From assembly GCA_016926735.1 (NCBI GenBank), contig JAFGOA010000081.1, positions 1 through 20,308 of the forward strand: 20,308 bases of DNA, written 5' to 3'. This document shows, piece by piece, positions 2,948-20,064 of the stretch; within the stretch, counting starts at the first letter, position 1, and each line of letters opens with the position of its first letter. The notes under the pieces are model-generated. The model had not been told where the DNA came from. It did not search any database and saw nothing but the letters and a program-made list of their open reading frames with translations. The translations under genes were made by a program, and so were the position numbers. Source of the DNA: Promethearchaeota archaeon. GTDB lineage: Archaea; Asgardarchaeota; Lokiarchaeia; Sigyniarchaeales; SOKP01.

Positions 2948-3493
2948 CTAAAGTTGATTACTTAACTCCATTACGTTTTCATTAAATTTTATTAACTTAT
3001 CCAAGTTGATTTTTAATGCTTGTAGAAATTGTGAAGTAATTAAGAAATCTTTTTTATCTTTTTCAGACATTTGTTTATGAATATTTTGTATTCTCTCTTT
3101 AAAAAATATTGTTTGATTAATTATCTGTTTATATTGGTCAATTGTTAATTCTTTTAAATTTAATGTAACATAATATCTTCTCTCTCTATGATGATTTTCA
3201 TTTATAACTTCGATATAATGACATTTACCTGCTTTTAATAATGATGATAATGAACGAGACACGGAACTTACTGAACGATTAATAAATTTAGCAATTGATT
3301 CTTGAGTTAAACCATATTGAGGGTTAAAAGCACGTAAAACAAGAACTCCAAATATTTTACCTATTATAAAATATAAACCTCTCATTTCCCATAGTTTGCC
3401 ATAGGTATCAATTATACTTTTTTCATATTCGTTTAATTTCGATAAATTATTATCTAATATGATTTCTTTATTACTATTTTTTTTTTGACTCAT
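2948..3493 (-). CDS. GbsR/MarR-family winged-helix transcriptional regulator
   Basis: Pattern G.LWE.RGL....GKIFGVL...LTQESIA..INRSVSSVSRSL..L...G...ERRYY matches GbsR/MarR-like regulators. Lies 17 bp upstream of pepT on the same strand. Confidence 0.8.
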   Translation of the reverse strand: MSQKKNSNKEIILDNNLSKLNEYEKSIIDTYGKLWEMRGLYFIIGKIFGVLVLRAFNPQYGLTQESIAKFINRSVSSVSRSLSSLLKAGKCHYIEVINENHHRERRYYVTLNLKELTIDQYKQIINQTIFFKERIQNIHKQMSEKDKKDFLITSQFLQALKINLDKLIKFNENVMELSNQL

Positions 3494-3558: not shown

Positions 3559-3582
3559 TGCACCATTGTGCGATTATGCACA
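3559..3582. promoter_or_regulatory. Candidate operator: overlapping inverted repeats GCAC-N4-GTGC and TGTGC-N6-GCACA
   Basis: TGCACCATTGTGCGATTATGCACA is a GC-richer patch in an AT-rich intergenic region between the divergent regulator and membrane-protein genes. Confidence 0.5.
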
Positions 3583-3610
3583 TAAACCAATAATAAAAGT
3601 GATAAAAAAA

Positions 3611-4012
3611 ATGAATTTTTCTGAATTTTTAATCATATTTGGAGGTATTTTTTCAATAGTTATGAGTATTTTTCATACTCAATTTTCCAGAATTTTTAAA
3701 TGGAAAACTTCTTTTAAAGAAAAGGCCATTGCTAACTATAAAATATTATATACAATAAATCTTGCCTTAATTCTTTTTTTATTTTGTTCTGGTATTTTTT
3801 CTATAACTTTTGCATCAAGACTAGCAGGAAAAGGAAGTATAGAACTATCCATTCTTATTTTCCTTTCTTTATTTTGGATATGGAGAACAATATGGCAAAT
3901 TCTCTATTTTAAAGTACCTAAAAACATAGAAAAGAGACCCATAATACATTATATATTCGTTATATATTTTCTTCTGTGTTCAATTTTTTACACATTATCA
4001 GTATTCTTTTGA
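3611..4012 (+). CDS. Small integral membrane protein (about 4 TM helices), function unknown
   Basis: Four hydrophobic segments with FH..F...FKW and FWIWRT.WQ..YF motifs. ATG at 3611 is preferred over the track's TTG at 3566, which lies within the palindromic site. Confidence 0.75.
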   Translation: MNFSEFLIIFGGIFSIVMSIFHTQFSRIFKWKTSFKEKAIANYKILYTINLALILFLFCSGIFSITFASRLAGKGSIELSILIFLSLFWIWRTIWQILYFKVPKNIEKRPIIHYIFVIYFLLCSIFYTLSVFF

Positions 4013-4038: not shown

Positions 4039-5403
4039 TTATTTCAGCAGATTTTTTTCTTTTGCATTTAAATCTAACCAATCGCTTAAATTTTTTAAAT
4101 TTCTACGACTAATAGCACAATAAATCTTTAAAAAAGGAATAAAGTCTCTAAACAATTCAGATTGAGATACAGGATATTTTTCTTGGATTTTCTCGATTAA
4201 ACTTGATTCTGCTGCATTTAAAGAGAAGAAACTAGAGGTACTATATCTAGGAAAATTTACTGGTTTATATCCCTGTGTTCTATTTTCTTTTCCAACAATA
4301 GCTACTCCGCCAGCAAATAAATCATAAAAATAGGGTAATAATGACCAATCCATATTTTTTTTGATTCTCCCAAAAATTTCATCGGCGATTGATAGATATT
4401 CAAAAGCATTTGAAAGATCTCTTTTATTATAAACAAACATTGGAAGATTTTCATTTATCCATTTATATAGAAAGTTATAATCCACATCAGATTTGTTTGT
4501 TATTGCACGAGCTTCATTTAAAGTGTTTACTTTTTGAAATAAATCTCTTATTATACTAAATATTTCTTCTGTTGTATCTCTATGAAGACTCATTATTATT
4601 TTGTTTCTCTCTTCAGGAGTTTCATTAGAGATTTGACTTAAAGCTTGGAGGTCATTAAGAATTCCTCGTAAATCTCCCTCATTTTTATTTATTATAAGTT
4701 CTAAATCTAATTGTTTAATATTATCTATATTCTCTAAAGATAATATTTTAGTTATGATTTTCAAAATTTCATCTTTTGAAAGAGGATTGACCTCATATCG
4801 AGGGATTGCATTATATAATGATTGTAAATTAAGTTTATATTCATTAGCACACATGATTATAGGAAATTGTGTGTCTTTAGCTAAATCTAAAATGGTAGGT
4901 ACTGCACCTCTATCTTTTGTACCATATATCCCATCTATCTCATCAATTAAGATTAGTTTTCTTTTTGTTTCAGAAATAAAATCCATGATTCCTTTAGATT
5001 TGGTAGTTTCTTTTAATTTTGATTCTAATGCTTCTCTTGTTCTAGTATCAGATGCATTGGTCTCAATGACTTCCATATTCATATCATTTGCAAGAGCATA
5101 AACTATAGATGTCTTTCCAATTCCCGGTTGACCTTCAAGTAAAATAGCAGTTTTTTCTTGTGGCAATTTTATTATTTCTTTTTTTTCCTTCTCCAGACAT
5201 CCTCTATTAAATACCTTTATTTCTTGATTTTTGTTATTTATATTTTTTATTTCTCTAAAAAAAATATCAATAAATTTAGTCAATTCTTCTACTAAATTCA
5301 CTTTTTGACGATTTAATTTAGCCGTTGGTAGTGCCATGTCTTTGATACTTTTAGGTCGATATTTTTCAATCCACGGTATATTATCATTTTTCTTTTTAAC
5401 CAT
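4039..5403 (-). CDS. rfcL: Replication factor C large subunit
   Basis: PWIEKYRP, Walker A GQPGIGKT, ETNASDTR, Walker B LILIDEIDG, GDLRG, and collar motifs WINENLP..LS.AD..FGRI...W.LLPY. ATG at 5403 avoids overlap with the upstream gene (track start 5433). Confidence 0.92.
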   Translation of the reverse strand: MVKKKNDNIPWIEKYRPKSIKDMALPTAKLNRQKVNLVEELTKFIDIFFREIKNINNKNQEIKVFNRGCLEKEKKEIIKLPQEKTAILLEGQPGIGKTSIVYALANDMNMEVIETNASDTRTREALESKLKETTKSKGIMDFISETKRKLILIDEIDGIYGTKDRGAVPTILDLAKDTQFPIIMCANEYKLNLQSLYNAIPRYEVNPLSKDEILKIITKILSLENIDNIKQLDLELIINKNEGDLRGILNDLQALSQISNETPEERNKIIMSLHRDTTEEIFSIIRDLFQKVNTLNEARAITNKSDVDYNFLYKWINENLPMFVYNKRDLSNAFEYLSIADEIFGRIKKNMDWSLLPYFYDLFAGGVAIVGKENRTQGYKPVNFPRYSTSSFFSLNAAESSLIEKIQEKYPVSQSELFRDFIPFLKIYCAISRRNLKNLSDWLDLNAKEKNLLK

Positions 5404-5410
5404 ATCTATT

Positions 5411-6457
5411 TCACATATACTCTCCAAAAGCATTTAATTTTGATATAAAGGCTGATATTTGAATATCTGAATCAATTCCATCTAAGGCTCGAAAATCTGC
5501 ATCTCCTATTAAATTTATTAACTTACATTTTTCGAACCTAGAAATTGGTAGATCAATAATAACTTCAAGCATTTTTTGAAATAATTCATTTGCATTATAT
5601 TTATAATTTGATAGAATTTCTCTAAACATGATTCTAGATTTTTTAAAATCTCCTTTAAAACTATTGAGAATCAGTTTTTCAATATCTTCATTTTTAAATT
5701 TCTTTACACTTTCAAATATTATCTTCTCATCGATAATATTAGAGTTTATACTGCTTAATTGCAGTATATCAATTGCTTTGGATATTCTACCTTCAGTAAT
5801 TCTATATATTATTTTAATAATATCAATATTCACATCAATTGACTCTTTTTTGGATATTTTGAGAATTAATTCTTCGAATTTATTATATTTCAATGGAGGA
5901 ATTAGAAATAATTGACATCTTGAAATGATAGGATCAATTATACCTGATATCTTAGTTGTTAACAATATCATTCGACAATTATTACCATAGATTTCCATTA
6001 ATCTCCTAAATCCTTGTTGATTAGATCCTAATGCTTCGAAATTTTTTACAATTAATATTTTAAAAGGAACATCTCCTAATACTTTTAATTGAACAAAAGG
6101 TTTAATTTTGACTTGAATAAATACCGGAGTGGTTATACTTTTACCTGCCATACTCCCAATTTTATTTGTTGAGATATAAGACTCCGATTTAGCTTGGGAT
6201 CGTTCTTCTTGGGTTAAGGGGAGATCAGCATAAACTAATTTAAGATTCGCATCAAAATAATCCCCTAAAAATTCTTTAGAGAAAAGATTTGCTATTGTTG
6301 TTTTTCCAATTCCACTAGAACCCACGAATAATAAATGAGGGAAATTCTTACTCTTAATAAATTCTTTCAATCTTGAAATTAATAATTCTCTTCCATATAT
6401 TTCATCTAAAGCTTTTGGCAGATATTTAAGGCGCCAAATTGGGTTTTCTTCAGTCAT
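5411..6457 (-). CDS. Divergent second RFC small subunit, probably ATPase-inactive
   Basis: W.LKY.P, PHLLFVGSSGIGKTT, QQGFRRLME, IIDPIISRC and the collar motif IGDADFRALDG..SDIQI are RFC-S features. Walker B reads IVKNFE and sensor 2 reads GRISKAI. Confidence 0.88.
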   Translation of the reverse strand: MTEENPIWRLKYLPKALDEIYGRELLISRLKEFIKSKNFPHLLFVGSSGIGKTTIANLFSKEFLGDYFDANLKLVYADLPLTQEERSQAKSESYISTNKIGSMAGKSITTPVFIQVKIKPFVQLKVLGDVPFKILIVKNFEALGSNQQGFRRLMEIYGNNCRMILLTTKISGIIDPIISRCQLFLIPPLKYNKFEELILKISKKESIDVNIDIIKIIYRITEGRISKAIDILQLSSINSNIIDEKIIFESVKKFKNEDIEKLILNSFKGDFKKSRIMFREILSNYKYNANELFQKMLEVIIDLPISRFEKCKLINLIGDADFRALDGIDSDIQISAFISKLNAFGEYM

Positions 6458-6477
6458 ATCATTTCTATTTTATATTT

Positions 6478-7476
6478 TTACTCATTATCCTTTTTATTAA
6501 TTCTTAAAAATATATCTGATAATAATGCAATAAGTTGTATATATTCGTCTGCTCCTTGAGAAATTCGATAATCAATTTCTCCAAAATAAGTTTTTATTTT
6601 TATAATATCCTTTTTGTCCATATTATCAATACTTAAGATTATTTTATTTAATTGTCTAAGGAAATTTCTACTATCAATATTTGATATGGAATCAAAAATC
6701 ATTTTAACTTCTTTATAATTTCCTTTTATTAAAGATATTATTAGTTTCTCCATAGTAGGTTTTTCTACAAAACCAGAAATCTTTAAAATCTCATCAGTAT
6801 CCAAATCCTTTAAGAGATGAAGTGCTACCGACATTTGTAATGTATTAATTGCTTTTCTCAAATCACCTCCAGAAATAAAATAGAGCATTTCAAAAAACTC
6901 CTTTTCTTTTCCTTTTGGAAGAGCTAATTTTTCTTGTTTTGCTATATATTTTAATCGTTCTATTATCTTTTCTTCCGAAAGTTTTAAAAATCTAAATACT
7001 GCACACCTAGATATTATTGGATCAATTATTTCATTAATATAATTGCACATCAAAATAAATTTTACATTTGGGGGAGAACTTTCAATAATCCTTCTCAATG
7101 TTTGTTGTACTGTTTTTGGAATATTATCTGCTTCATCTAAAATTACGATTTTAACTTCCTTTTCTTTTAAAATCATATTTTGATTAACAAAATTATTCAA
7201 TTCATTTCTAACATAATCCATCCTTACAGTGTCTGATGCATTTAACTCTAATACATTTCTGTAATATTTATCTCCTTTAAGTAATTTTTTTGCGATTATC
7301 AGTGCTGTACTTGTTTTGCCTGTTCCAGCAGGACCAGTAAAAATCATATGAGGCATATCATAACTTTTTTTGATAAATTCAGCCAAATTAGTAGTAGATA
7401 TATCTTGACTAACAATCTCTTCAAAACTTTTAGGGCGATATTTCTCAACCCAAGGAGTTTCTAAATCCGTACTCAT
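6478..7476 (-). CDS. rfcS: Replication factor C small subunit (canonical)
   Basis: PWVEKYRP, GPAGTGKT, LELNASD, ILDEAD, QQTLRR, IIDPIISRC, GDLRKAINTLQ: all RFC boxes intact. Confidence 0.96.
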   Translation of the reverse strand: MSTDLETPWVEKYRPKSFEEIVSQDISTTNLAEFIKKSYDMPHMIFTGPAGTGKTSTALIIAKKLLKGDKYYRNVLELNASDTVRMDYVRNELNNFVNQNMILKEKEVKIVILDEADNIPKTVQQTLRRIIESSPPNVKFILMCNYINEIIDPIISRCAVFRFLKLSEEKIIERLKYIAKQEKLALPKGKEKEFFEMLYFISGGDLRKAINTLQMSVALHLLKDLDTDEILKISGFVEKPTMEKLIISLIKGNYKEVKMIFDSISNIDSRNFLRQLNKIILSIDNMDKKDIIKIKTYFGEIDYRISQGADEYIQLIALLSDIFLRINKKDNE

Positions 7477-7661
7477 TGTTATACTTTAAATAATTTTTTC
7501 TTTTCTCTTAATCTATACTTGCAAGCATAGAATTTAAATTTTTTTTGCTGTAAATTAACAGAATAATAATTTTTTAAATTTATTGACTGAGATAAATTTT
7601 AATAAATATATTAAAAAAAACACAAATATTTAATAATCAGATTATAAATAATATCCTTATT

Positions 7662-8180
7662 ATGATAAAAAAAAAGATAGTTATGTTTTTTTCATTATTC
7701 TCTTTTGTATTAATATTAATTATACCTATGGTTAGAGGAAATATGGCCTTCCCATGGATATTGTATCAAAATTTTTGGGATTTTATAATAATAATTATTC
7801 CTGTAATTTTTGTTATTTCGCTTACTCTTGAATTATTTATATTATTTATATTTGAAAAAAAAAATAATATACTAAATCATAGTAAATTTATAAAATATAT
7901 ATTATTTGCAAATCTGATATCGTTTCCATTTACGCAATTTTTTGTTATTTTTCCATGGGGATTGGGAATTGGTTATTATTTTTCTCTTTTACCTACTTTA
8001 GCTACGATTCAGATAGTTCCTATGACAATAGAGTATCTTATACTCAGTTATTTATTCAAAAAATTATATAATAAGGGAAATATTGAATATGAAATTACTA
8101 ATTGTGGTCCTGTAATTGTTCTAGCAAATTTATTTTCTTTTTCAATAGGATGGCTTATATATTCTTTTATTCCAGTATAA
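7662..8180 (+). CDS. Hypothetical multi-pass membrane protein (172 aa)
   Basis: Five to six hydrophobic segments; internal repeat E...ANL.SF occurs twice (ANLISF, ANLFSF). Confidence 0.8.
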   Translation: MIKKKIVMFFSLFSFVLILIIPMVRGNMAFPWILYQNFWDFIIIIIPVIFVISLTLELFILFIFEKKNNILNHSKFIKYILFANLISFPFTQFFVIFPWGLGIGYYFSLLPTLATIQIVPMTIEYLILSYLFKKLYNKGNIEYEITNCGPVIVLANLFSFSIGWLIYSFIPV

Positions 8181-8798: not shown

Positions 8799-9266
8799 TT
8801 AATCTTCTGATAAATCTAATTTATGAACTTCATATGCTTTCTTAAAATTCATTTGTTTATAAAGTTCGGATGTTTTTGTTGCTTGTTCTCGGATATTAAC
8901 TTTTACCTTCTCTACCTTGATCTTTTTTAAATGCTCTAATGCTTGTTCTAACAATATCTTACCTATATTCTTTCCCCTATATTCGTCTCTTAAATAAAAT
9001 TGCTTTATATATCCTTCTGATTTGCCAAAAGGATCAATTCTTAGCTCAGCAATAATCATTCCTACCACTTTACAAGTGTCTTCATCTATTGCTATCAAAA
9101 TTCCATGGCGTTGCAAAGGATCATATAACCTTCGACGAATTCCCCAATCAAATCTTTTAGACTCAAATTCTTGACCTAGGCTTTCAACCAAAAGTTTGGT
9201 TAATTCTCTTAAAGAATCAATTTGTTCTGGTGAAGCTATCTCTACTTTAATATTAGTATCTTCCAT
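8799..9266 (-). CDS. GNAT-family N-acetyltransferase
   Basis: Acetyl-CoA-binding motif A YIKQFYLRDEYRGKNIGKILL and motif B LYKQMNF; typical 155-aa size. Confidence 0.9.
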   Translation of the reverse strand: MEDTNIKVEIASPEQIDSLRELTKLLVESLGQEFESKRFDWGIRRRLYDPLQRHGILIAIDEDTCKVVGMIIAELRIDPFGKSEGYIKQFYLRDEYRGKNIGKILLEQALEHLKKIKVEKVKVNIREQATKTSELYKQMNFKKAYEVHKLDLSED

Positions 9267-9483: not shown

Positions 9484-9771
9484 CTAATAATGTCTTGCTG
9501 ATGTTCCGTCCCAAGCTTTCACTTCAGGATCAACCGCATTACATACGGGACAAGATTGAGAAACTTCCCATGGCTCTAAAGCGGGATGAACACGGGTATA
9601 GAGATTTCCACATTGCTGACAAACAAGATATTTAGCTCCACATGAACTACACATCTTTAATTGACCCTTTTCAACAAAAAAAAAGGTTCTACGCATCCAT
9701 TCATCATGAACAGCAGAGAAGCTATCACCTCCGCACTCACTACAATGTTTTCCATCGAATTGTTCTGCCAT
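9484..9771 (-). CDS. Small zinc-ribbon protein with four CxxC pairs (95 aa)
   Basis: CSECG, CSSCG, CQQCG, CPVC; SD-like GGTGG just upstream of the ATG. Confidence 0.88.
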   Translation of the reverse strand: MAEQFDGKHCSECGGDSFSAVHDEWMRRTFFFVEKGQLKMCSSCGAKYLVCQQCGNLYTRVHPALEPWEVSQSCPVCNAVDPEVKAWDGTSARHY

Positions 9772-9992: not shown

Positions 9993-10313
9993 TTACATCT
10001 TAAGTTTTTTTGTTTTTGATGAACTTTGTTCTGGGTTTATTTCTTCAATTTCTTTTACTAACCTTTGAACTCTATCATCTGCTAATGCTTCGTAAAATTT
10101 AACATACATTTCATTGCTTCCTATAAAAAGACCTTTTCTTTTCATAGGATTTCCATCTTCTTTTAATGGATTTATCTCAAGATATAAAAGTGCAGGTTTG
10201 GTTTTAGTGCCTGGAGCTTTTACTACAAATACTCCTGGTACTGGAGTCTCCATTTTTTCCCATTCTTTTGCATTAGCTAAATGGTCTTCTAGTTGTGATT
10301 GTATATTACTCAT
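9993..10313 (-). CDS. Archaeal hypothetical protein, possibly a PC4/Sub1-like nucleic-acid-binding fold
   Basis: Beta-rich core GVFVVK...LYLEINP...GNPMKRKGLFI followed by a helix, resembling the PC4 'P.KKGI.L' strand-then-helix layout. The fold call is inference. Confidence 0.7.
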   Translation of the reverse strand: MSNIQSQLEDHLANAKEWEKMETPVPGVFVVKAPGTKTKPALLYLEINPLKEDGNPMKRKGLFIGSNEMYVKFYEALADDRVQRLVKEIEEINPEQSSSKTKKLKM

Positions 10314-10862: not shown

Positions 10863-13800
10863 TTATTCTTCTTTTTTTAGTTCCTTAACTCTTTTCCTTC
10901 TTTTTGCCCGAGTTTGTGCAATTTTTAATTTTAAATCTTCTAATTGTTGATTTTCTGTAATAATATCTGACGGTTCAACTATATCTATACCTATTTGATT
11001 TCTATAAATGTTAATTGTATCTTCAATTTTATTTAAAATTGTATTTTCAGCATTAATTTTTTCTAAATTGTATTTAGCTTCATTTAATTCTGATATTGCT
11101 TTCATTAAATTATTTTTCATTATAGATTTTTGAGCACGATCAAGAGCTTCATAGCTTATTTTAAATTCCTTTGTATTCTTTAAATGAGATTTTTCAAGAA
11201 CTATTAATGGAACTTTTGTTTGGTTTTTAAGATGATTAATTATAGATTTAATTTTTCCAATTTGCTTTATTTTATTCGTTTGCTCTAATTTAACAAGTCT
11301 TTCTGATAATTTTAAAATGGTTTCATTGTATCTATAATTTTTTATAAGGATCTCTGCTAATTCTAACTCATTTGGAAGTTTTTTTTGTTCTTTGGCAATT
11401 TTTTTTCTTCTTTCTTCAATTTCAATTCTATTTAGCTCTTTTTTTTGTTCTTCAGCTATGTTTAATAATTGTTTTAAGTCTTTCTCTTCTTTTTCTTTTT
11501 TTCTTTGATATTTCTCCAATCTTAATGCCTGATCTCTTTTTTTATTCAGATTAACTAATAACTCTTGATCAATTCGATTAACCTCTGTCTGCCAATCTAT
11601 TTCTTGGAAAAGTTTTCTAGCTTCTATATATAATTTATAAGCATCGTTAAAATTTTTTGTTTCAACTAATTTGGATCCTTTTTTTAATAACGTATATGCT
11701 CTATCTGATATTTCTTCTTGCTTTTCCTTTAGAGCGTTTCTTTTTTTTATTTCATCTTCTTTTCTAATTTTTTCAAGCTTTTCCATTTCATTAATTTTAT
11801 TTATTTCTTTTTCTAAATTCTGTTCTAGTTTTATCTGTTTAGACTTTAATCTTTCCATTTCTTTTTGTTCATTTTCATGACTTAATTTTTTATTTTTTAT
11901 TAAATCAATAGAATCTTTTATTAAGGAAATTCCTGCCTTCCATTCTAAATTCTCGAAGATATTTTCACTCTTTTTATATAAATTTAAAGCATTATCAAAA
12001 TTATTATCTTCTAACTCTTTTTTTGCTCTGTCCATAAACTCAAAAGCCCGCTTCTTTTGAATTTCAAATTCTTGGCTTTGAAGTTTTTCTTTTTGTTCTT
12101 GTTGTTTTTCCTTTTTTAATCGTTCTTCCTTTTCTTTTATGGTTTTTTCAATTAATAATTCTTCTTCGAGTTTTGCTTGCTCTTTCTCCTTTATTTTCTT
12201 TATTTCATTTTCTCTTATCTTTTTATCTTCTTTAATTTTTTTTTTAAAATATTCAATAGACTCATCCAATTTTTTAGCTTCAATTAACCATCTATTTTGT
12301 TCGAATTTCTTTTTTGCGTTATTATATATCTCAATTATTTTGTCATAAGGACATTCTAAATTTAAAATTCCTTGTTTGAGTATCTCATCATCATAACTTT
12401 TCGAGATTTGATCAGCTTTATTAATCATTTCAAATATATCGTTAAAGATCTTTTGGTTTTGTTTTTTTTTATTTTCAATATCTAAAAAAAGATTTTTATT
12501 TTCTTTTTCAATCTCCTCTAAAATATTTTTATCCAAGGGATAATGAATAACTTTTTCTTCTTTTTTTTGAATTTCTAATTTTCTGATCCTATCATCTTTT
12601 TCTTTCTTTTCAGTATAGTATTGGATCGTATTATCAATATTGTCTGCTTCATTATTCCATCCTATATCTAATAGAAGGATTTTTGCTTCTTTATAGTAAT
12701 TAATAACTTCAGAGTATGGACTCTCAAAATCTGTTAATTTTGATTTTAATTTTAATTCATAAGATTTAGCCTTTTTTTCAGCTTCATTTATAATATTCAT
12801 CGCTTTTTCTAATTTCTCTTCTTTTTCCGCTTCAATTCTTTTGATTTCTTGAATATTTACATCATAATTATCTTTTTGTTCTATATTTGCATTTATTTGC
12901 ATGTCTTCAATTTCTTTTTGTCGTTTTAATTTTTGTACTTCAATTTCTCTTAATTTTTGCACTTTTTCTATTTTTTCTTTATATATTTGAATTTGATTCA
13001 AGTAAATTGCTGCTTGGTCTTTCCAACCTTTATCTAAAAGTTTTTTACGAATTTCTCTGTAAATTTTTATTACTTCTGGATAGATTGGTTCTGTCTCAAA
13101 ATCGCCTTTTTTTAATTTATTATCATATTCTCTCGCTAATTTTTCAGCGTGGTCAACCATCTTTGTAATCTTATCCTGAAAAATTTCATCTCTTTCCTTT
13201 TGTTGGATACCTTTGGAAATCTTAGGTTCTGTCTCTTGAATTAATTTATCATTAAATCTATATATCTTTTCTAATTTTTGTTTTTCTTCTGATTTTTTCT
13301 TTTCAATTTCTCTTAATCTTATATCTTTTTCAAGTTTGGTTTTATATAGTTTTATTTGATTAGTATAAATTAAAGATTCTTCATTCCATCCATATTTATG
13401 AAGTTCGTCCCTTATTTTTCGATATATATTCATTATTTCTTCATAAGGACATTCAATATCAAAATTACCTCTCTTTAACTGTATTTCATATTCTCTTGCT
13501 ATTCTTTCAGCGTGATTAACTTGTTTATCTATATACTCTTCAAAGTTTTTATCATCTATTTCTTGTTTTTGTTTTAATCCTATATCTTTTGAAGTTAATA
13601 CATTCTCTGATTCTTTTATAGATATTTTATGAAGGGAGGCTGTATTTTCTTTATCTTGGTTTTTTTTTTTTTCTATTTCTCTAATTTTATTATGATTCTT
13701 AAGCTTTTTTTGATATATTCTGATTTGATTGTTATAAATGGATATTTGATCATTCCATCCTCGTTTTATCAATGCATTTTTGATATCCTCATATATTTCT

Positions 13801-13988
13801 ATAATCTTATAATAGGGATGCTCTTCAAGAAAAGTACCCTCTTTCAGAGCCTTTTTAAAATCAATATTAAAATCTCTTACCATTTTCTCAGCATTGTTTA
13901 CTAATTCAGAAATTTCTTCTTGAAACTCTTCATCATCCAATTTTTGAATTTCTAATCTCTTATTCTCTTCCTCATTCATTTTTCTCAT
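10863..13988 (-). CDS. Large all-helical repeat / coiled-coil protein (1041 aa) with MIT/TPR-like units
   Basis: At least seven Trp-marked helical units (AE..A..Y...PY..I..IY......L...GW......I..Y) separated by E/K-rich coiled-coil linkers. Confidence 0.88.
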   Translation of the reverse strand: MRKMNEEENKRLEIQKLDDEEFQEEISELVNNAEKMVRDFNIDFKKALKEGTFLEEHPYYKIIEIYEDIKNALIKRGWNDQISIYNNQIRIYQKKLKNHNKIREIEKKKNQDKENTASLHKISIKESENVLTSKDIGLKQKQEIDDKNFEEYIDKQVNHAERIAREYEIQLKRGNFDIECPYEEIMNIYRKIRDELHKYGWNEESLIYTNQIKLYKTKLEKDIRLREIEKKKSEEKQKLEKIYRFNDKLIQETEPKISKGIQQKERDEIFQDKITKMVDHAEKLAREYDNKLKKGDFETEPIYPEVIKIYREIRKKLLDKGWKDQAAIYLNQIQIYKEKIEKVQKLREIEVQKLKRQKEIEDMQINANIEQKDNYDVNIQEIKRIEAEKEEKLEKAMNIINEAEKKAKSYELKLKSKLTDFESPYSEVINYYKEAKILLLDIGWNNEADNIDNTIQYYTEKKEKDDRIRKLEIQKKEEKVIHYPLDKNILEEIEKENKNLFLDIENKKKQNQKIFNDIFEMINKADQISKSYDDEILKQGILNLECPYDKIIEIYNNAKKKFEQNRWLIEAKKLDESIEYFKKKIKEDKKIRENEIKKIKEKEQAKLEEELLIEKTIKEKEERLKKEKQQEQKEKLQSQEFEIQKKRAFEFMDRAKKELEDNNFDNALNLYKKSENIFENLEWKAGISLIKDSIDLIKNKKLSHENEQKEMERLKSKQIKLEQNLEKEINKINEMEKLEKIRKEDEIKKRNALKEKQEEISDRAYTLLKKGSKLVETKNFNDAYKLYIEARKLFQEIDWQTEVNRIDQELLVNLNKKRDQALRLEKYQRKKEKEEKDLKQLLNIAEEQKKELNRIEIEERRKKIAKEQKKLPNELELAEILIKNYRYNETILKLSERLVKLEQTNKIKQIGKIKSIINHLKNQTKVPLIVLEKSHLKNTKEFKISYEALDRAQKSIMKNNLMKAISELNEAKYNLEKINAENTILNKIEDTINIYRNQIGIDIVEPSDIITENQQLEDLKLKIAQTRAKRRKRVKELKKEE
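12200..13930 (-). repeat. Five diverged intragenic protein repeats of about 120 aa
   Basis: Recurrent HPY/CPY/PIY/SPY/CPY ... RGW/YGW/KGW/IGW/NRW ... IREIE/LREIE/LREIE/IRKLE/IRENE in the translation. Boundaries are approximate. Confidence 0.85.
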
Positions 13989-14119: not shown

Positions 14120-14512
14120 TTATTCGGATTGTTTTATAAATCGGGTAAGAAAATCATCGCAAATTTTTCCACCTTCATGAGTTAAGATCCATCCTTTTTG
14201 AGTTTTCTCAACAATATCCAATGTAATTAAGTTATCTAAAATTTCTTTTAGCTCTTCTTCTGATTTTCTTATATTAAAATCATTTTTTAAACAATAAAGG
14301 ATATCATTTATAGGAACAGATTCTCCTAATTCATCTTCCATTATTCCTAAGGCTGCTACAATTTGTTGCTCATTTTCCATTAATTCGTTCATTTCGCTAG
14401 AAACTTCCTCTAATAACCATGGATGTTCATTTAACATGGCCTTTATCTTTTTTTCATCCCCTGTTTTAAATATTTCATCAAAATCTTCTCGAATTTTCTT
14501 TTTCTTTACCAT
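14120..14512 (-). CDS. Hypothetical protein with probable C-terminal winged-helix domain (130 aa)
   Basis: ...VPINDILYCL...SEEELKEILDNLITLDIVEKTQKGWILTHEG has the wH 'L...G.V......W.LT.EG' pattern. Confidence 0.7.
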   Translation of the reverse strand: MVKKKKIREDFDEIFKTGDEKKIKAMLNEHPWLLEEVSSEMNELMENEQQIVAALGIMEDELGESVPINDILYCLKNDFNIRKSEEELKEILDNLITLDIVEKTQKGWILTHEGGKICDDFLTRFIKQSE

Positions 14513-14692: not shown

Positions 14693-17600
14693 ATGGTATT
14701 TGAAAGATTTAGAGAATCAAGATTATCAAATTCTCGGCGAGATGATGATTTAATTGAAATTGATGGCCCCCCTGGAAAAGGGAGGTTTAAATATCGGCCA
14801 TTTAAAAAAAAACCAAAAATGAAAATATTTTATATAATCGCAATTATTTCTGCAATTGTTCTTATCATATTGACTATTTTTTGGTGGTGGCCTGCTTGGC
14901 ACGCTGGAGTTAGTCTTAATTCTCAACTATATAATAATAAAGCAGGAGGTCTTGATTATCAAGAGTTCCAATTTCTCAATTATTGGTCAAATTTTTTCTT
15001 TTTGAATAAATCTGCATTGATTGGAGCATTAATTGGAACAATAATAATGAGTCTCCCTCCAGATAGAATATTATTGACTGCGATTGGAACTCGTTTGAGA
15101 TTTGGAAAACCATCAAGAAAAAAGGCATTATTGTTTTGGTGGACTATAGGATTTGCAATATTTTATGGCCTTGGATTTTTAATAGATCTCTCTGGTCAAT
15201 TTTCATGGAATATGTATTTATTAGAAAATGGAGAACTTGAATTTAATCCTTTCACTCTCATTTTTGATGCTTTTAATGTCTTAATGAATCCTAATAATAT
15301 GGATATGACATCCATATACATTTACCAGAGTCTCTATGTACCAATTATTAATTTTATTATTGGGGTTCTTATATTTAGAGCTGCTTTAAAAATACTTCAG
15401 AACATATATATCCGAAGAAATGATTATGAAGTGATTATGAGCTCATTATTTGTCGTTACACTTTTTTTTGGTTTAATCTTCCTAAACATTCCAATGATGG
15501 CTCTTGACGGTATTCAGGTAACTCAAATATGGACATTTATTGTAGGATTCTTTAGTTTAATGACATTAAGTATAATTTTATTTATATATGGAAAAATAAA
15601 ACTATCTCAAAATTCAAGAAATTATATTCTATATAGTAAGGAGAGACGAAAGGTAATAATAATGTCGATAATAACATTATTTATAATTCTTATCCCTCTT
15701 TTCATTAGTATTGGACCATCAATTAATTTAAGTAATGCTTCCGTATATGAGCAAGAAATATGGGTAAAAAAATATAACCGTCAGATTGAATGGACTCATG
15801 TCTCAGCGGATTTAAATATTTTTGAAGAACGTCCTATTGAAAACTTTACAACTTCAACAAATAGTACTTACGATGATCTAATGATACCACAGATTAGGCA
15901 GTTTGATCAAACATATGCTGTAAAGACCCTTTCGGCTAAAATAGGAACTACTTATGAAGGATTAGCAGATTCGGATATTGTATATATAAATGGTACGGAA
16001 TATTGGGTTGCACCAAAAACTATACGAATTGATCAATTCTCTGGGGATTCCGTGGCAATTCATACTGAACTTTATGATCATGTAGAAGGAATTATGGCAA
16101 TTAATTCATTTAATGGGACATTGGTTAATATTACAGACATATTTTCAATTTCAGAAAGTTATCCTATCTTCTTTGGAGAATCTGAAAGTAGTAAATTCCT
16201 TATGGAACAAGGTCTTTCTTCTTATGGAAGATTAGGTGCATATGATTCAGATATTCTTCTCGATACGGAATGGAGTGGAGGTATTGAAAAAAATATTCAT
16301 GTGTATAACGGCTCTTCTGATGGTACTCTTTCTGGTTTAGAAGGATTTTGGTATACTGTTGGAATGGGTCTTTGGGGATATTCTTCTCAATCTGAATATA
16401 ATTTTTTAATTAATAGAAACGTAAAAACAAGAGTAGCAAATATTTTACTTCCTAACATGAAAATAGACAACGATCCTTATCTTGTATTTGATCATATGGG
16501 AAAGATGTATTATGCTGTTTCAATTTATACATCTATCAATGTAGGATCTTATTCAGCTACTCCAATATATAGGTTTTTAGGTATATGTTTAGTTGATGTG
16601 GAGTATGGAACTCTTGAATTCTATGAAAATCCTTCCCTAGAAGCGTCTTCTTTAGATCCAACATTCAATCTATGGGAAATATATATAGAAAAATATAATT
16701 GGCAAAGTGTTCCTAGTTGGTTGCTTGCACAAATGAGATATCCTGAAGATCTATTAGAATTACAATTAGAAGCAAATTATATTTATCATGTAGATGATTT
16801 AAAGAGTTGGAAAAGAGGAGATGATTTTCAAGAACGCCCTCAAGATGGTGATTTATTCTACATTGAAACTATACTTGGAGATGGAATTGTTGAGCTTGTT
16901 GGATTAGATATTGTTGAATATAAGGGACAAGATGCAAGAACTCTAGCTGGTATGTATGTTATGCGACATGGAACTCATTTAGGTGAAGCAATATTCTATC
17001 ATACAAGAGATCTTGGGACAAATCAATTAATAGGGCCACAAACAGCTCGAGATAGTTATATTAACGAAGCAGCCAAAACCAATCCTTTAATTGAAGATTG
17101 GACCAGTGGTAATACTTTATTATATCCTCTGTTAAATTCAATTTATTATTATATTCCATCTTATAGTACTATTGGTGATGTACAAAATCTTAATTTAGCT
17201 GGTTTTGTAGAAGGTTTCACTAGAGATGTGGGAATTGGGGCAGATGCATATGAAGCTTATGAAGATTTGGGAAAATTCAGTCCAACAGCATTTACATTGA
17301 ATTCAAATGCTAATGATCCAGACCTTGATGGAAAATTTACATTATCATGGACAAAATCAACATATAGCGATACATATTCAATATATCAAAATGAAACTTT
17401 ACTTGAGGAAGTAAGTTCTTCAGAAGAATTATCATATGAAATATCAGGTCTAAGTAATGGATATTATAATTATCATATAGTAGCAGAAAATGATTATGGA
17501 ACTATCAGTTCAAACTATCATGATGTGAATGTTAGTTTAATCCCTATTAATTATGATTTCTCATTAGAAGATTCAATAATACTTCCTAGTGATTTTTCTA

Positions 17601-17953
17601 AACTAAGAGTAGAACTTGAGAATTTTAATGATAATCCTTTAGAAGGATCTGTTGATAATATAAGTGTGATTCTAACACTTTATACTGCCCATGATGATAT
17701 AGATATTACGTTACTTGGTCTTGATGATTATTCAATCAACAGTACTTTAATTATAGACACAGATTATTATGAAATTACCTATACTTTGATAAATCAAACA
17801 AGTTTGCTCCCAGGAAGAGGAATAATTCTAAATGGTTGGTTAAATTGTACTGACTCTGATATAATTATTCATTATGTTTGGAGATTGATAATTCAAGGAA
17901 TAGAGTTATATGTTTCTGATATTGGAGATATTATCGTATCCTCAGAAATTTGA
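14693..17953 (+). CDS. UPF0182-family integral membrane protein with C-terminal FN3-like extension
   Basis: About 8 N-terminal TM segments, then UPF0182 motifs I..T....DL, IRQFD, YPIFFGE, RNVKTRV..I.P....D.DPYLV, RYPEDL..LQ, GNTLLYPL. From about 17315, FTLSW...YSIYQN...ISGLSNGYYNYHIVAENDYG is FN3-like. Confidence 0.85.
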   Translation: MVFERFRESRLSNSRRDDDLIEIDGPPGKGRFKYRPFKKKPKMKIFYIIAIISAIVLIILTIFWWWPAWHAGVSLNSQLYNNKAGGLDYQEFQFLNYWSNFFFLNKSALIGALIGTIIMSLPPDRILLTAIGTRLRFGKPSRKKALLFWWTIGFAIFYGLGFLIDLSGQFSWNMYLLENGELEFNPFTLIFDAFNVLMNPNNMDMTSIYIYQSLYVPIINFIIGVLIFRAALKILQNIYIRRNDYEVIMSSLFVVTLFFGLIFLNIPMMALDGIQVTQIWTFIVGFFSLMTLSIILFIYGKIKLSQNSRNYILYSKERRKVIIMSIITLFIILIPLFISIGPSINLSNASVYEQEIWVKKYNRQIEWTHVSADLNIFEERPIENFTTSTNSTYDDLMIPQIRQFDQTYAVKTLSAKIGTTYEGLADSDIVYINGTEYWVAPKTIRIDQFSGDSVAIHTELYDHVEGIMAINSFNGTLVNITDIFSISESYPIFFGESESSKFLMEQGLSSYGRLGAYDSDILLDTEWSGGIEKNIHVYNGSSDGTLSGLEGFWYTVGMGLWGYSSQSEYNFLINRNVKTRVANILLPNMKIDNDPYLVFDHMGKMYYAVSIYTSINVGSYSATPIYRFLGICLVDVEYGTLEFYENPSLEASSLDPTFNLWEIYIEKYNWQSVPSWLLAQMRYPEDLLELQLEANYIYHVDDLKSWKRGDDFQERPQDGDLFYIETILGDGIVELVGLDIVEYKGQDARTLAGMYVMRHGTHLGEAIFYHTRDLGTNQLIGPQTARDSYINEAAKTNPLIEDWTSGNTLLYPLLNSIYYYIPSYSTIGDVQNLNLAGFVEGFTRDVGIGADAYEAYEDLGKFSPTAFTLNSNANDPDLDGKFTLSWTKSTYSDTYSIYQNETLLEEVSSSEELSYEISGLSNGYYNYHIVAENDYGTISSNYHDVNVSLIPINYDFSLEDSIILPSDFSKLRVELENFNDNPLEGSVDNISVILTLYTAHDDIDITLLGLDDYSINSTLIIDTDYYEITYTLINQTSLLPGRGIILNGWLNCTDSDIIIHYVWRLIIQGIELYVSDIGDIIVSSEI

Positions 17954-18131: not shown

Positions 18132-19277
18132 ATGAAAAAATCAGCTTTATTTTTATTGTCTATTATTGCTATTGGAACAATCGTAGGTGTTTTATCATAT
18201 TTTATTATTTTTTATAAGCCAAGTACACAAACCACTACTAAATATGTTCGAATTTATGTAAATAGTACTATTTATGGAAGTATATCCACAGAAATTTCCC
18301 AATATGAGCAAGATGTGAAGAATCAAGGATATTTAACTGATGTAATAAGTTGGTCAAATACTGATGTCGTTCAACTAAAAGGGGATCTAATAAATGCCTA
18401 TAATAATTCTTTTGTTGGTGCAGTCTTCATTGGAAAAATACCCTATGCTCTTTATGATAATCTTAGTATTTCAGACACAGAAGCATTATATCCCTGTGAT
18501 TTATTTCTAATGGATTTGGATGGACTTTGGTTAGATTTAAATCCCACAGGTGATGGAATTTTTGATGGTCATACTACAGGAACAGGAGATGTTTATCCAG
18601 AAATATGGATTGGAAGAATTAATCCTGAATGTCTCAATAATCTAGGATTTTCCTATATTCAAGCTTATAAAGATTATTTTAAAAAAAATCATGATTATAG
18701 AACGGGAAGTTTAACTCGTCCTGATCAAGCTTTACTCTATATTGATGATGATTGGGCTAATATACAATCTTCTATGTATAATGATTTTAATTCCGCTAAT
18801 TGTTTCTCATCAATCACTAATATATATAATCTTTTAATGACAACTGATATTGATTATGAAAATAACCAAATAACAAATGCATCTTATAAATGGGTCCATC
18901 TTATGGCCCATTCATGGGCATATAGACATCAATGGGGACCTGGAGGAACTGGTTCTGAAGGATATACAACTAATACTGAAATAAATTCGATTGTAACCCA
19001 ACCACTTTTTTACAATCTTTTCTCATGTTATGCTTGTGATATAAGTTATACAAATAATATGGGAACTCAATATCTTTTCTCAAATAACACCTTAGCTGTT
19101 GTGGGATCTACAAAATCAGGAGGTATGTGGATGATAAGCTCTTTCTATAGCCCCCTTGGTCAAGGAAAAACAATTGGAGAATCATTTCGATTATGGTGGT
19201 GGAATAGTCTTCACGGTCCCTTAGATAAAGTATCTCGAGGATTAACTATTCTTGGAGATCCTCTTCTTACAATATAA
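18132..19277 (+). CDS. Membrane-anchored/secreted C25 (gingipain-like, clan CD) cysteine peptidase
   Basis: N-terminal hydrophobic anchor; motifs FIG.IP, CDLF.MDLDG, PEIWIGRI, putative catalytic His (HLMAHS) and Cys (LFSCYAC), G.TIGE, and terminal LGDP.L. Confidence 0.8.
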   Translation: MKKSALFLLSIIAIGTIVGVLSYFIIFYKPSTQTTTKYVRIYVNSTIYGSISTEISQYEQDVKNQGYLTDVISWSNTDVVQLKGDLINAYNNSFVGAVFIGKIPYALYDNLSISDTEALYPCDLFLMDLDGLWLDLNPTGDGIFDGHTTGTGDVYPEIWIGRINPECLNNLGFSYIQAYKDYFKKNHDYRTGSLTRPDQALLYIDDDWANIQSSMYNDFNSANCFSSITNIYNLLMTTDIDYENNQITNASYKWVHLMAHSWAYRHQWGPGGTGSEGYTTNTEINSIVTQPLFYNLFSCYACDISYTNNMGTQYLFSNNTLAVVGSTKSGGMWMISSFYSPLGQGKTIGESFRLWWWNSLHGPLDKVSRGLTILGDPLLTI

Positions 19278-19335: not shown

Positions 19336-20064
19336 TTAATCAGTTTCAGATTTATTTAAGAACTGTTTAATTTCATCTTTTGAAGCAACTGTGAATTTTT
19401 TATCTTCAGATTTTATATAAGAAAGTCTGATATTTTCTTCAGTCGATTCTTCATCGTTAGCTTCTTTAACAGAGTTCAGAGCTAATTGAACAAGATCTTC
19501 AAATTCTAAATCTTCACTATAATTAGTTCTTAAATATTCACGAGCAGTAGCTTCACCACTACCCATTGCATAAGCTTTAAATGATCGGTAGATTCCACTT
19601 GGTGATGTTGTGTATATTTGAGTACCATCAGAATCAATTCCAATAAAGAATAAAGCACATCCCCATGGTCTTATTCCTCCATATTGAGTATATTGTTGCA
19701 TAACATCTGCAATCACTTTTACTAACATATTAAGACGAACTGGTTCGTCATAGGTTAATCTAAATGATTGTGATTGAACTCTTGCATAATCTACTAATAC
19801 ACGAGAATCTGCATGAAGTCCTGAAATTGCTACACCAATATGTCCATCAACTTGGAATATCTTATCAATTTCATTTGCATCCATTAATTTGGAAGGTATT
19901 TTTATTTGAGCAACTAAACATACATCTTTTTTAGATTTTACAGCAACTGCTAATGTTCCTCGTCGAACTGCTTCTAAAGCATATTCTACTTGATAAAGGC
20001 GACCCTCTGGACTAAATACAGTAAGTGCCCTATCATATTTTATTTGTCCGCCACCACCAAACAT
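19336..20064 (-). CDS. psmA: Archaeal 20S proteasome alpha subunit
   Basis: YDRALTVFSPEGRLYQVEYA signature, SGLHADSRVL, QQYTQYGGIRP.G, PSG, A.AMGSG. Confidence 0.97.
   Translation of the reverse strand: MFGGGGQIKYDRALTVFSPEGRLYQVEYALEAVRRGTLAVAVKSKKDVCLVAQIKIPSKLMDANEIDKIFQVDGHIGVAISGLHADSRVLVDYARVQSQSFRLTYDEPVRLNMLVKVIADVMQQYTQYGGIRPWGCALFFIGIDSDGTQIYTTSPSGIYRSFKAYAMGSGEATAREYLRTNYSEDLEFEDLVQLALNSVKEANDEESTEENIRLSYIKSEDKKFTVASKDEIKQFLNKSETD

Follow-up and report, generated by a model that had tools for sequence, protein, structure and literature searches.

Two divergent small subunits and the large subunit of replication factor C in one lokiarchaeal gene cluster: a probable four-protein clamp loader

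The window analysed here, 20,308 bases of DNA (about 25% G+C) from a Promethearchaeota archaeon of the class Lokiarchaeia (contig JAFGOA010000081.1), carries on its minus strand three successive and co-oriented open reading frames (ORFs) for subunits of replication factor C (RFC), a clamp loader. In the direction of reading these are gene 1 and gene 2, which are related to the RFC small subunits, and gene 3, which encodes the large subunit, RfcL (coordinates in Table 1). An earlier interpretation made from the sequence alone, referred to below as the original prediction, had placed three co-oriented RFC genes with spacers of 20 and 7 nucleotides at this locus, and both the ORF reading and the matches to RFC models agree with it, coordinates included. 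In our reading the cluster is the rfcS3-rfcS2-rfcL operon published for Lokiarchaeales by Feng et al. (2025; PMC12680538), which, together with a canonical rfcS1 gene on another contig of the same genome, would specify a clamp loader of four different proteins; we put the probability of this reading at roughly 0.85.

The three genes can be identified by profile searches. Gene 3 passes the cut-off of NF003229, the RFC large-subunit equivalog (E = 2.8e-86; 289.8 bits against a cut-off of 280), and its best solved relative is human RFC1 (67 bits). Gene 1 matches NF001679, the RFC small-subunit equivalog, at E = 5.7e-88 and 294.5-295.1 bits, just below the cut-off of 303, and gene 2 matches the same model in two stretches at E = 9.5e-72 and 241.8 bits (171 + 69.6 in genome-wide scoring), also under 303. 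By the NCBI cut-off, then, both are homologues of the NF001679 family and not equivalogs. Gene 2 also matches NF009067 ('small subunit 2') in one end-to-end stretch, with residues 5-342 aligned to positions 2-337 of 340, at E = 2.7e-52 and 177.8 bits, far under the cut-off of 317. The Pfam domains found on the cluster genes are AAA, DNA_pol3_delta2 and Rep_fac_C, of which gene 1 carries AAA and Rep_fac_C.

The window's own assembly (3.88 Mb in 238 contigs, 99% complete) contains one further RFC gene, at G000:C131:7268-8209, and a search of the same assembly for a second large subunit found none. The genome has four RFC genes only: one for a large subunit and three for different kinds of small subunit. 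The product of the C131 gene (321 aa) is a canonical small subunit with all motifs intact; its identity is 41% with gene 1 and 32% with gene 2, and of the three small subunits it alone exceeds the NF001679 cut-off (436.8 bits versus 303). A canonical small subunit above the cut-off is likewise encoded apart from the cluster in all five same-order genomes searched, three of which are single-contig assemblies.

Alignment of the four proteins reveals distinct motif states. Gene 1 is intact throughout (its Walker A reads GPAGTGKTS and its Walker B LDEADN, and both SRC and sensor-2, GDLRK, are kept), and the C131 copy has an intact Walker A, the Walker B LDEAD, the SRC motif and the sensor-2 arginine. 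Gene 2 has an intact Walker A (GSSGIGKTT) and retains the SRC arginine finger; its Walker B DEAD is replaced by KNFE (VKNFE) and its sensor-2 GDLRR by GRISK, with loss of the arginine. RfcL keeps Walker A (GQPGIGKTS), Walker B (IDEID) and the sensor-2 arginine, and lacks the SRC arginine finger. Having lost Walker B and the sensor-2 arginine, gene 2 is predicted to be unable to hydrolyse its own ATP, and it should bind ATP without hydrolysing it. In the RFC spiral the terminal E subunit binds nucleotide, is catalytically dead and donates an arginine finger, and the A subunit has no arginine finger. Judged by motifs and set against this established architecture, gene 2 fits the E position and RfcL fits the A position.

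Gene 2 is set apart also by the distance between Walker A and Walker B, which is 80 residues in gene 2, 54 in gene 1, 54 in the C131 copy and 51 in RfcL; compared with the spacing of 54, gene 2 therefore contains an insertion of 26 residues. Canonical models and chains align to gene 2 in two stretches and skip residues 72-113. A family alignment was made of 128 sequences, of which 120 are database relatives and 8 are locus translations. All of its 12 most frequent Walker B strings, which account for 112 rows, are KNF(E/D); in the six locus rows from the same order the motif is KNFH, KNFE or TDF(E/D), and SRC is retained in the alignment. The insertion has a fixed length: the spacing is 79, by the count of the script used for this alignment, in all order rows printed, namely three database relatives (the window's own protein included) and six locus orthologues. 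Within the insertion, conservation reaches 90% or more across 33 order-level rows for the residues ER, S..IGS.AG and F.Q. The original prediction was right in that the second small subunit is specialised.

RfcL has peculiarities of its own. Between the PWxEKYRP box and Walker A (residues ~22-85) lies an insertion of about 45 residues, also seen in L020-L033. It occurs in most members of the window's family, and a second family of the order has it too, with another sequence; in G149, in a third family and outside the order it is short or missing. The C-terminus of RfcL (4039-4110, minus strand) has a family-conserved SDWLDL..KEK..LK motif, looser xDWLxh forms of which occur in other Asgard families; possibly the motif serves as a non-canonical tail for PCNA binding. 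Only in the RfcL of G085 was a canonical PIP box (QASLDQYF) seen at the extreme C-terminus.

The cluster and the fourth gene have already been described in print, and the window represents another genome of the same order. According to Feng et al. (Nat Ecol Evol, in print since October 2025; PMC12680538), Lokiarchaeales encode RfcL, a canonical RfcS1 and two further paralogues, the genes being arranged as an rfcS3-rfcS2-rfcL operon with rfcS1 elsewhere; RfcS2 is described there as having Walker A and the arginine finger and lacking Walker B, and RfcL as lacking the arginine finger. The same source locates the RfcS2 insertion at the place of the eukaryotic E-plug and gives its predicted form as a helix and a disordered loop, not a beta-hairpin. 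In Ca. Harpocratesius repetitus, pull-downs with His-RfcL and Strep-RfcS1 are reported to co-purify all four proteins, and AlphaFold3 models place RfcS2 opposite RfcL, at 1:2:1:1 or 1:1:2:1 (PMC12680538). Phylogenetically, RfcS3 is presented in that work as sister to eukaryotic RfcB-D and RfcS2 as sister to RfcE, which RfcS2 is also said to resemble in structure, and a 2026 review (PMC12993045) restates the account. The statement in the original prediction that an expanded RFC had been reported for Lokiarchaeales was correct. Our locus shares with the published description the tight S3-S2-L order, the canonical rfcS1 encoded elsewhere, the motif states of RfcS2 and RfcL and the insertion in the middle of RfcS2; the lineage is also the same, the relatives being named Lokiarchaeota or Promethearchaeota and the strong orthologues occurring in the window's order only. 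Gene 1, gene 2 and the C131 copy are accordingly called RfcS3, RfcS2 and RfcS1 where their roles are discussed.

We infer the following arrangement of the four-protein loader. RfcL, which lacks the arginine finger, would take the A position, and RfcS2 would take the terminal E position, where it would bind ATP through its Walker A and give its SRC finger to the site of its neighbour. The three catalytic middle positions would be divided between RfcS3 and RfcS1. In RfcS2, the conserved insertion of 26 residues probably reaches into the DNA chamber, as the eukaryotic E-plug does.

Such an assembly can be compared with three known types of clamp loader. With eukaryotic RFC (Rfc1-5, subunits A to E) it would share distinct subunits, an A subunit without arginine finger, a dead but nucleotide-binding terminal E and an insertion at the E-plug site; however, eukaryotic RFC has five gene products and the window's genome four, and the RfcS2 insertion is predicted to form a helix and a disordered loop, whereas the eukaryotic E-plug is a beta-hairpin. 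With the RFC of Methanosarcina and haloarchaea, which has three components (RFCL, RFCS1 and RFCS2), it shares a specialised second small subunit, and gene 2 spans the NF009067 model from end to end; the Loki system differs in that it adds RfcS3 and joins S3, S2 and L in one operon. In Methanosarcina, three RFCS1 are combined with a single RFCS2 in one terminal position, from which it is unable to extend the small-subunit chain (PMC2880001), and in Haloferax volcanii three RFC genes are present, all of them essential (PMC7776575). The supplement of Feng et al. lists RfcS-1 with RfcS-2 also in Hel- and Thor- lineages, Halobacteriota and some Poseidoniales, assigns the Halobacteriota copies to the RfcS-2 group and records all three types only in Lokiarchaeales (PMC12680538). 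Canonical archaeal RFC, in which one RFCL is combined with four identical RFCS (structures 1iqp, 2chq), has the same fold and domain order, and its RFCS chains are the best sequence matches of all three small subunits and the best fold match of gene 2; the window's genome differs from it in having three small subunits that are not identical, of which one is catalytically dead as judged by its motifs.

The distribution of the RfcS2 type was followed by searching 400 genomes of the phylum with gene 2, a strong orthologue being defined as a match at E<=1e-60 and counts being taken from the result table. Strong orthologues are present in 121 of the 134 other genomes of the window's family and in 1/1, 12/14 and 3/4 genomes of the three other families of the order, which amounts to 137/153 other genomes in the order overall. 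Among the 246 phylum genomes outside the order no strong orthologue was found, the best match there having E = 5.3e-46. At the less stringent E<=1e-5, gene 2 has 608 homologues, and the best 120 of these 608 are 61-100% identical and are all Asgard proteins. Source names such as Lokiarchaeota and Promethearchaeota are attached to the relatives, a few being labelled Thor-, Heimdall- or Hodarchaeota. Within the order, gene 2 is only 34-41% identical to its orthologues in the compared single-contig genomes, which belong to a different family. The order gene 1-gene 2-L (small-small-large) is kept in all 19 same-order genomes in which the locus was examined (20 loci were read, of which L026 and L040 are the same place). 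Cut L frames in two of these relatives are put down to assembly and not to biology: L041 holds 100 N, and L034 comes from a single-contig genome that is 63% complete.

Outside the order, the RFC genes of five genomes were surveyed. One genome of the same class (G128) has a canonical copy and a gene-2-like gene directly upstream of L, without gene 1, an arrangement that looks like a simpler three-component stage; in the gene-2-like protein of this locus (L078, G128:C5, 230-2529) Walker B reads NNSH and Walker A ends in GKMS. Two genomes of another family (G316 and G335) contain a canonical S-L pair and a separate, lone gene-2-like gene (L036, G316:C3, 4250-5377; L037, G335:C1, 4415-5530), the products of which (371-375 aa) have an intact Walker B (DEAD), a longer insertion and a Walker spacing of 101. 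The remaining two genomes have S and L only. The canonical RfcS match in G335 (L075, G335:C2:405343-406284) carries one in-frame TAG, which may reflect an error, a pseudogene or recoding.

The original prediction had drawn a different assembly from the operon, namely a pentamer with one L, three copies of the gene 1 product (RfcS3) and one RfcS2 (L:S1x3:S2 in its own labels), in which the two small subunits arose by tandem duplication; under such a model the canonical gene would be irrelevant or redundant. It had also proposed a phylogeny as a check, which was carried out on Asgard sequences only: a maximum-likelihood tree of 51 sequences over 327 columns (LG+C20+F+G4 by PMSF), rooted on 15 large subunits. 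In this tree the gene-1 types form a clade of their own (support 97/88), as do the gene-2 types (100/100), and the latter group with gene-2-like proteins from outside the order (100/98). Gene 1 and gene 2 do not come out as sisters; support is weak (82/50) for the deeper node at which gene 1 falls outside the rest of the small subunits. An approximately unbiased (AU) test in which gene 1 and gene 2 were forced together, a constraint that corresponds to the duplication hypothesis and was fixed before the tree was made, rejects this topology (delta lnL 39.5, p-AU 0.0035), with the caveat of long branches. The tree and the AU test argue against a tandem duplication that gave rise to both operon small subunits, and the presence of gene 2 relatives without gene 1 outside the order tells against it as well. 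For the S3-S2 pair, Feng et al. give recombination, and not duplication, as the origin (PMC12680538).

The tight linkage of the three genes in an order kept in 19/19 genomes would suit the pentamer of the original prediction, encoded by the operon alone; gene 1 has all the catalytic motifs and could in principle fill positions B to D; and the three RFCS1 and one RFCS2 of Methanosarcina provide a precedent (PMC2880001). However, the pentamer omits the canonical gene, which is kept in 5/5 same-order genomes searched and is the best conserved of the small subunits (436.8 bits), and the orthologue of which co-purifies with L, S2 and S3 (PMC12680538). Its duplication component is rejected by the AU test (p 0.0035), and in G128 a gene 2 relative adjoins L without any gene 1. 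Taken as a whole, we regard this model as most improbable.

Several observations also weigh against the four-protein loader as we have drawn it. In sequence, gene 2 alone scores 172/167 bits against archaeal RFCS chains, 72-100 against eukaryotic B/C/D and 55/48 against human/yeast E, and a 36-row profile of gene 2 gives 302/295, 165-203 and 118-142 bits, respectively. In fold, a Foldseek search with the AlphaFold2 model of gene 2 returned archaeal RFCS first and no E chain among the matches listed, and VIA-align gave the highest Z score to B (26.7), followed by archaeal RFCS (26.5), D (~24.9) and E (24.2). All RFC small-subunit chains lie within ~2.5 Z, however, and the rmsd is lowest for E (9.7 versus ~12 A), and we regard this fold comparison as non-discriminating. 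Gene 2 is thus no closer to RfcE than to other RFC subunits in sequence or fold, E scoring lowest among the small subunits. Of the other two small subunits, gene 1 scores 207/204 bits against archaeal RFCS, 149-182 against B/C/D (yeast Rfc2 182, human RFC4 174) and 64/76 against human/yeast E, and the C131 copy 329/310, 217-244 and 126/100. An alignment that runs through the insertion in one stretch was obtained with E chains only (plus yeast Rfc2 with the single sequence). RfcE is fast-evolving, and low similarity is compatible with orthology. The likeness of RfcS2 to RfcE that is visible here consists of motif loss, insertion site and inferred position, and not of overall similarity; the sister relation of the two is the claim of Feng et al. 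(PMC12680538), and long branches could affect it.

The remaining points on this side concern the shape of the insertion, the distribution of the gene and the published biochemistry. The AlphaFold2 model of gene 2 has a mean pLDDT of 84.9 and a pTM of 0.66, and residues 93-107 of the insertion have pLDDT <50. With gene 2 as the query, no strong orthologue was found in 16 of the 153 order genomes, some of which are >95% complete. The published system shows no difference of substance from our locus, but its biochemistry was done on Ca. Harpocratesius repetitus and not on this organism; Feng et al. model both 1:2:1:1 and 1:1:2:1 and leave the stoichiometry undecided (PMC12680538). In addition, the published double-tag pull-down puts L and S1 with S2 and S3 without proving that S2 and S3 occur in one particle.

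This last point bears on a second alternative, in which two loaders coexist: a canonical L:RfcS1x4 particle for replication, and a second loader for repair or clamp unloading, made of the operon products and perhaps RfcS1. A pull-down that does not place all four proteins in one particle (PMC12680538) would allow for it, as would the presence of a single large subunit against three kinds of small subunit, and in Methanosarcina sub-complexes of RFCS1 and RFCL are partly active (PMC2880001). On the other hand, L is encoded beside the divergent subunits and not beside the canonical one, so that the operon products would seem to be its main partners, and nothing directly points to two types of particle. 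Eukaryotic alternative RFC-like complexes exchange the large subunit, whereas the parallel drawn here would exchange small subunits. The coexistence of two loaders with these separate duties is in our estimate very improbable. In its more general form, in which the single L is shared by a canonical L:RfcS1x4 particle and an operon particle with RfcS3 and the dead, insertion-bearing RfcS2, the idea is speculative and in our view unlikely. If it were true, the functional specialisation of clamp loaders would have begun in Asgard archaea by the swapping of small subunits, and substrate choice would be redirected by the strictly conserved IGSxAG loop in the insertion of RfcS2.

Read as a four-protein loader, the system stands between the usual archaeal RFC, with one large and one small subunit gene, and the five-gene RFC of eukaryotes, as the original prediction had supposed, and it is among the clearest living intermediates between the two-gene archaeal and the five-gene eukaryotic loader. 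It bears on how the eukaryotic replication machinery acquired asymmetric subunits, a point that has been in print since October 2025. Our analysis adds the operon order in 19 genomes, the restriction of the RfcS2 type to the order, the rejection of tandem duplication and a caution regarding the likeness to RfcE.

The start of gene 3 can be placed in two ways. The longest ORF is 4039-5433 (464 aa), and a start at 5433 would result in a 23-nt overlap with gene 2. An ATG at 5403 lies 7 nt past the gene 2 stop and gives a product that begins MVKKKNDNIPWIEKYRP...; this start is likelier, because the orthologue of RfcL in G158, a genome of the same genus, has the equivalent Met as its first residue (MAKKKIYDIPW...). 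The 20 nt that separate gene 1 from gene 2 leave too little room for an additional promoter, and the cluster is probably co-transcribed. The promoter likely lies in the intergenic region upstream of gene 1, which a divergent ORF shares; TATA-like A-T-rich strings are found 10-60 nt upstream of the gene 1 ATG and are non-significant in DNA of 25% G+C.

Table 1. Features of the RFC cluster in the window, listed from upstream to downstream on the minus strand
Feature	Position	Strand	Length	Remarks
Upstream intergenic region	7477-7661	-		Likely promoter region; common to the divergent ORF 7662-8180 (+)
Gene 1	6478-7476	-	332 aa	Divergent RFC small subunit with a complete set of catalytic motifs; RfcS3 of Feng et al. 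2025, 'S1' of the original prediction
Spacer gene 1/gene 2	6458-6477	-	20 nt	From direct reading
Gene 2	5411-6457	-	348 aa	RfcS2 of Feng et al. 2025, 'S2' of the original prediction
Spacer gene 2/RfcL	5404-5410	-	7 nt	If RfcL starts at 5403
Gene 3	4039-5403	-	454 aa	RFC large subunit, RfcL

The window carries further genes. On the minus strand these include an M20-family peptidase (1656-2930), a GNAT acetyltransferase (8799-9266) and a proteasome alpha subunit (19336-20064), which matches Pfam Proteasome at E = 2.1e-51 and also has the N-terminal signature of alpha subunits. Small flanking ORFs without a Pfam match are located at 233-526, 2948-3493, 3566-4012, 7662-8180, 9484-9771, 9993-10313, 14120-14512 and 18132-19277. 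Two ORFs are much longer: one of 1,041 aa on the minus strand (10863-13988), which has no Pfam match at E<=0.001 and lies where both AT skew and GC skew are strongly negative; and one of 1,086 aa on the plus strand (14693-17953), whose only match is a weak and partial one to UPF0182 (E = 6.5e-10, residues 569-718).

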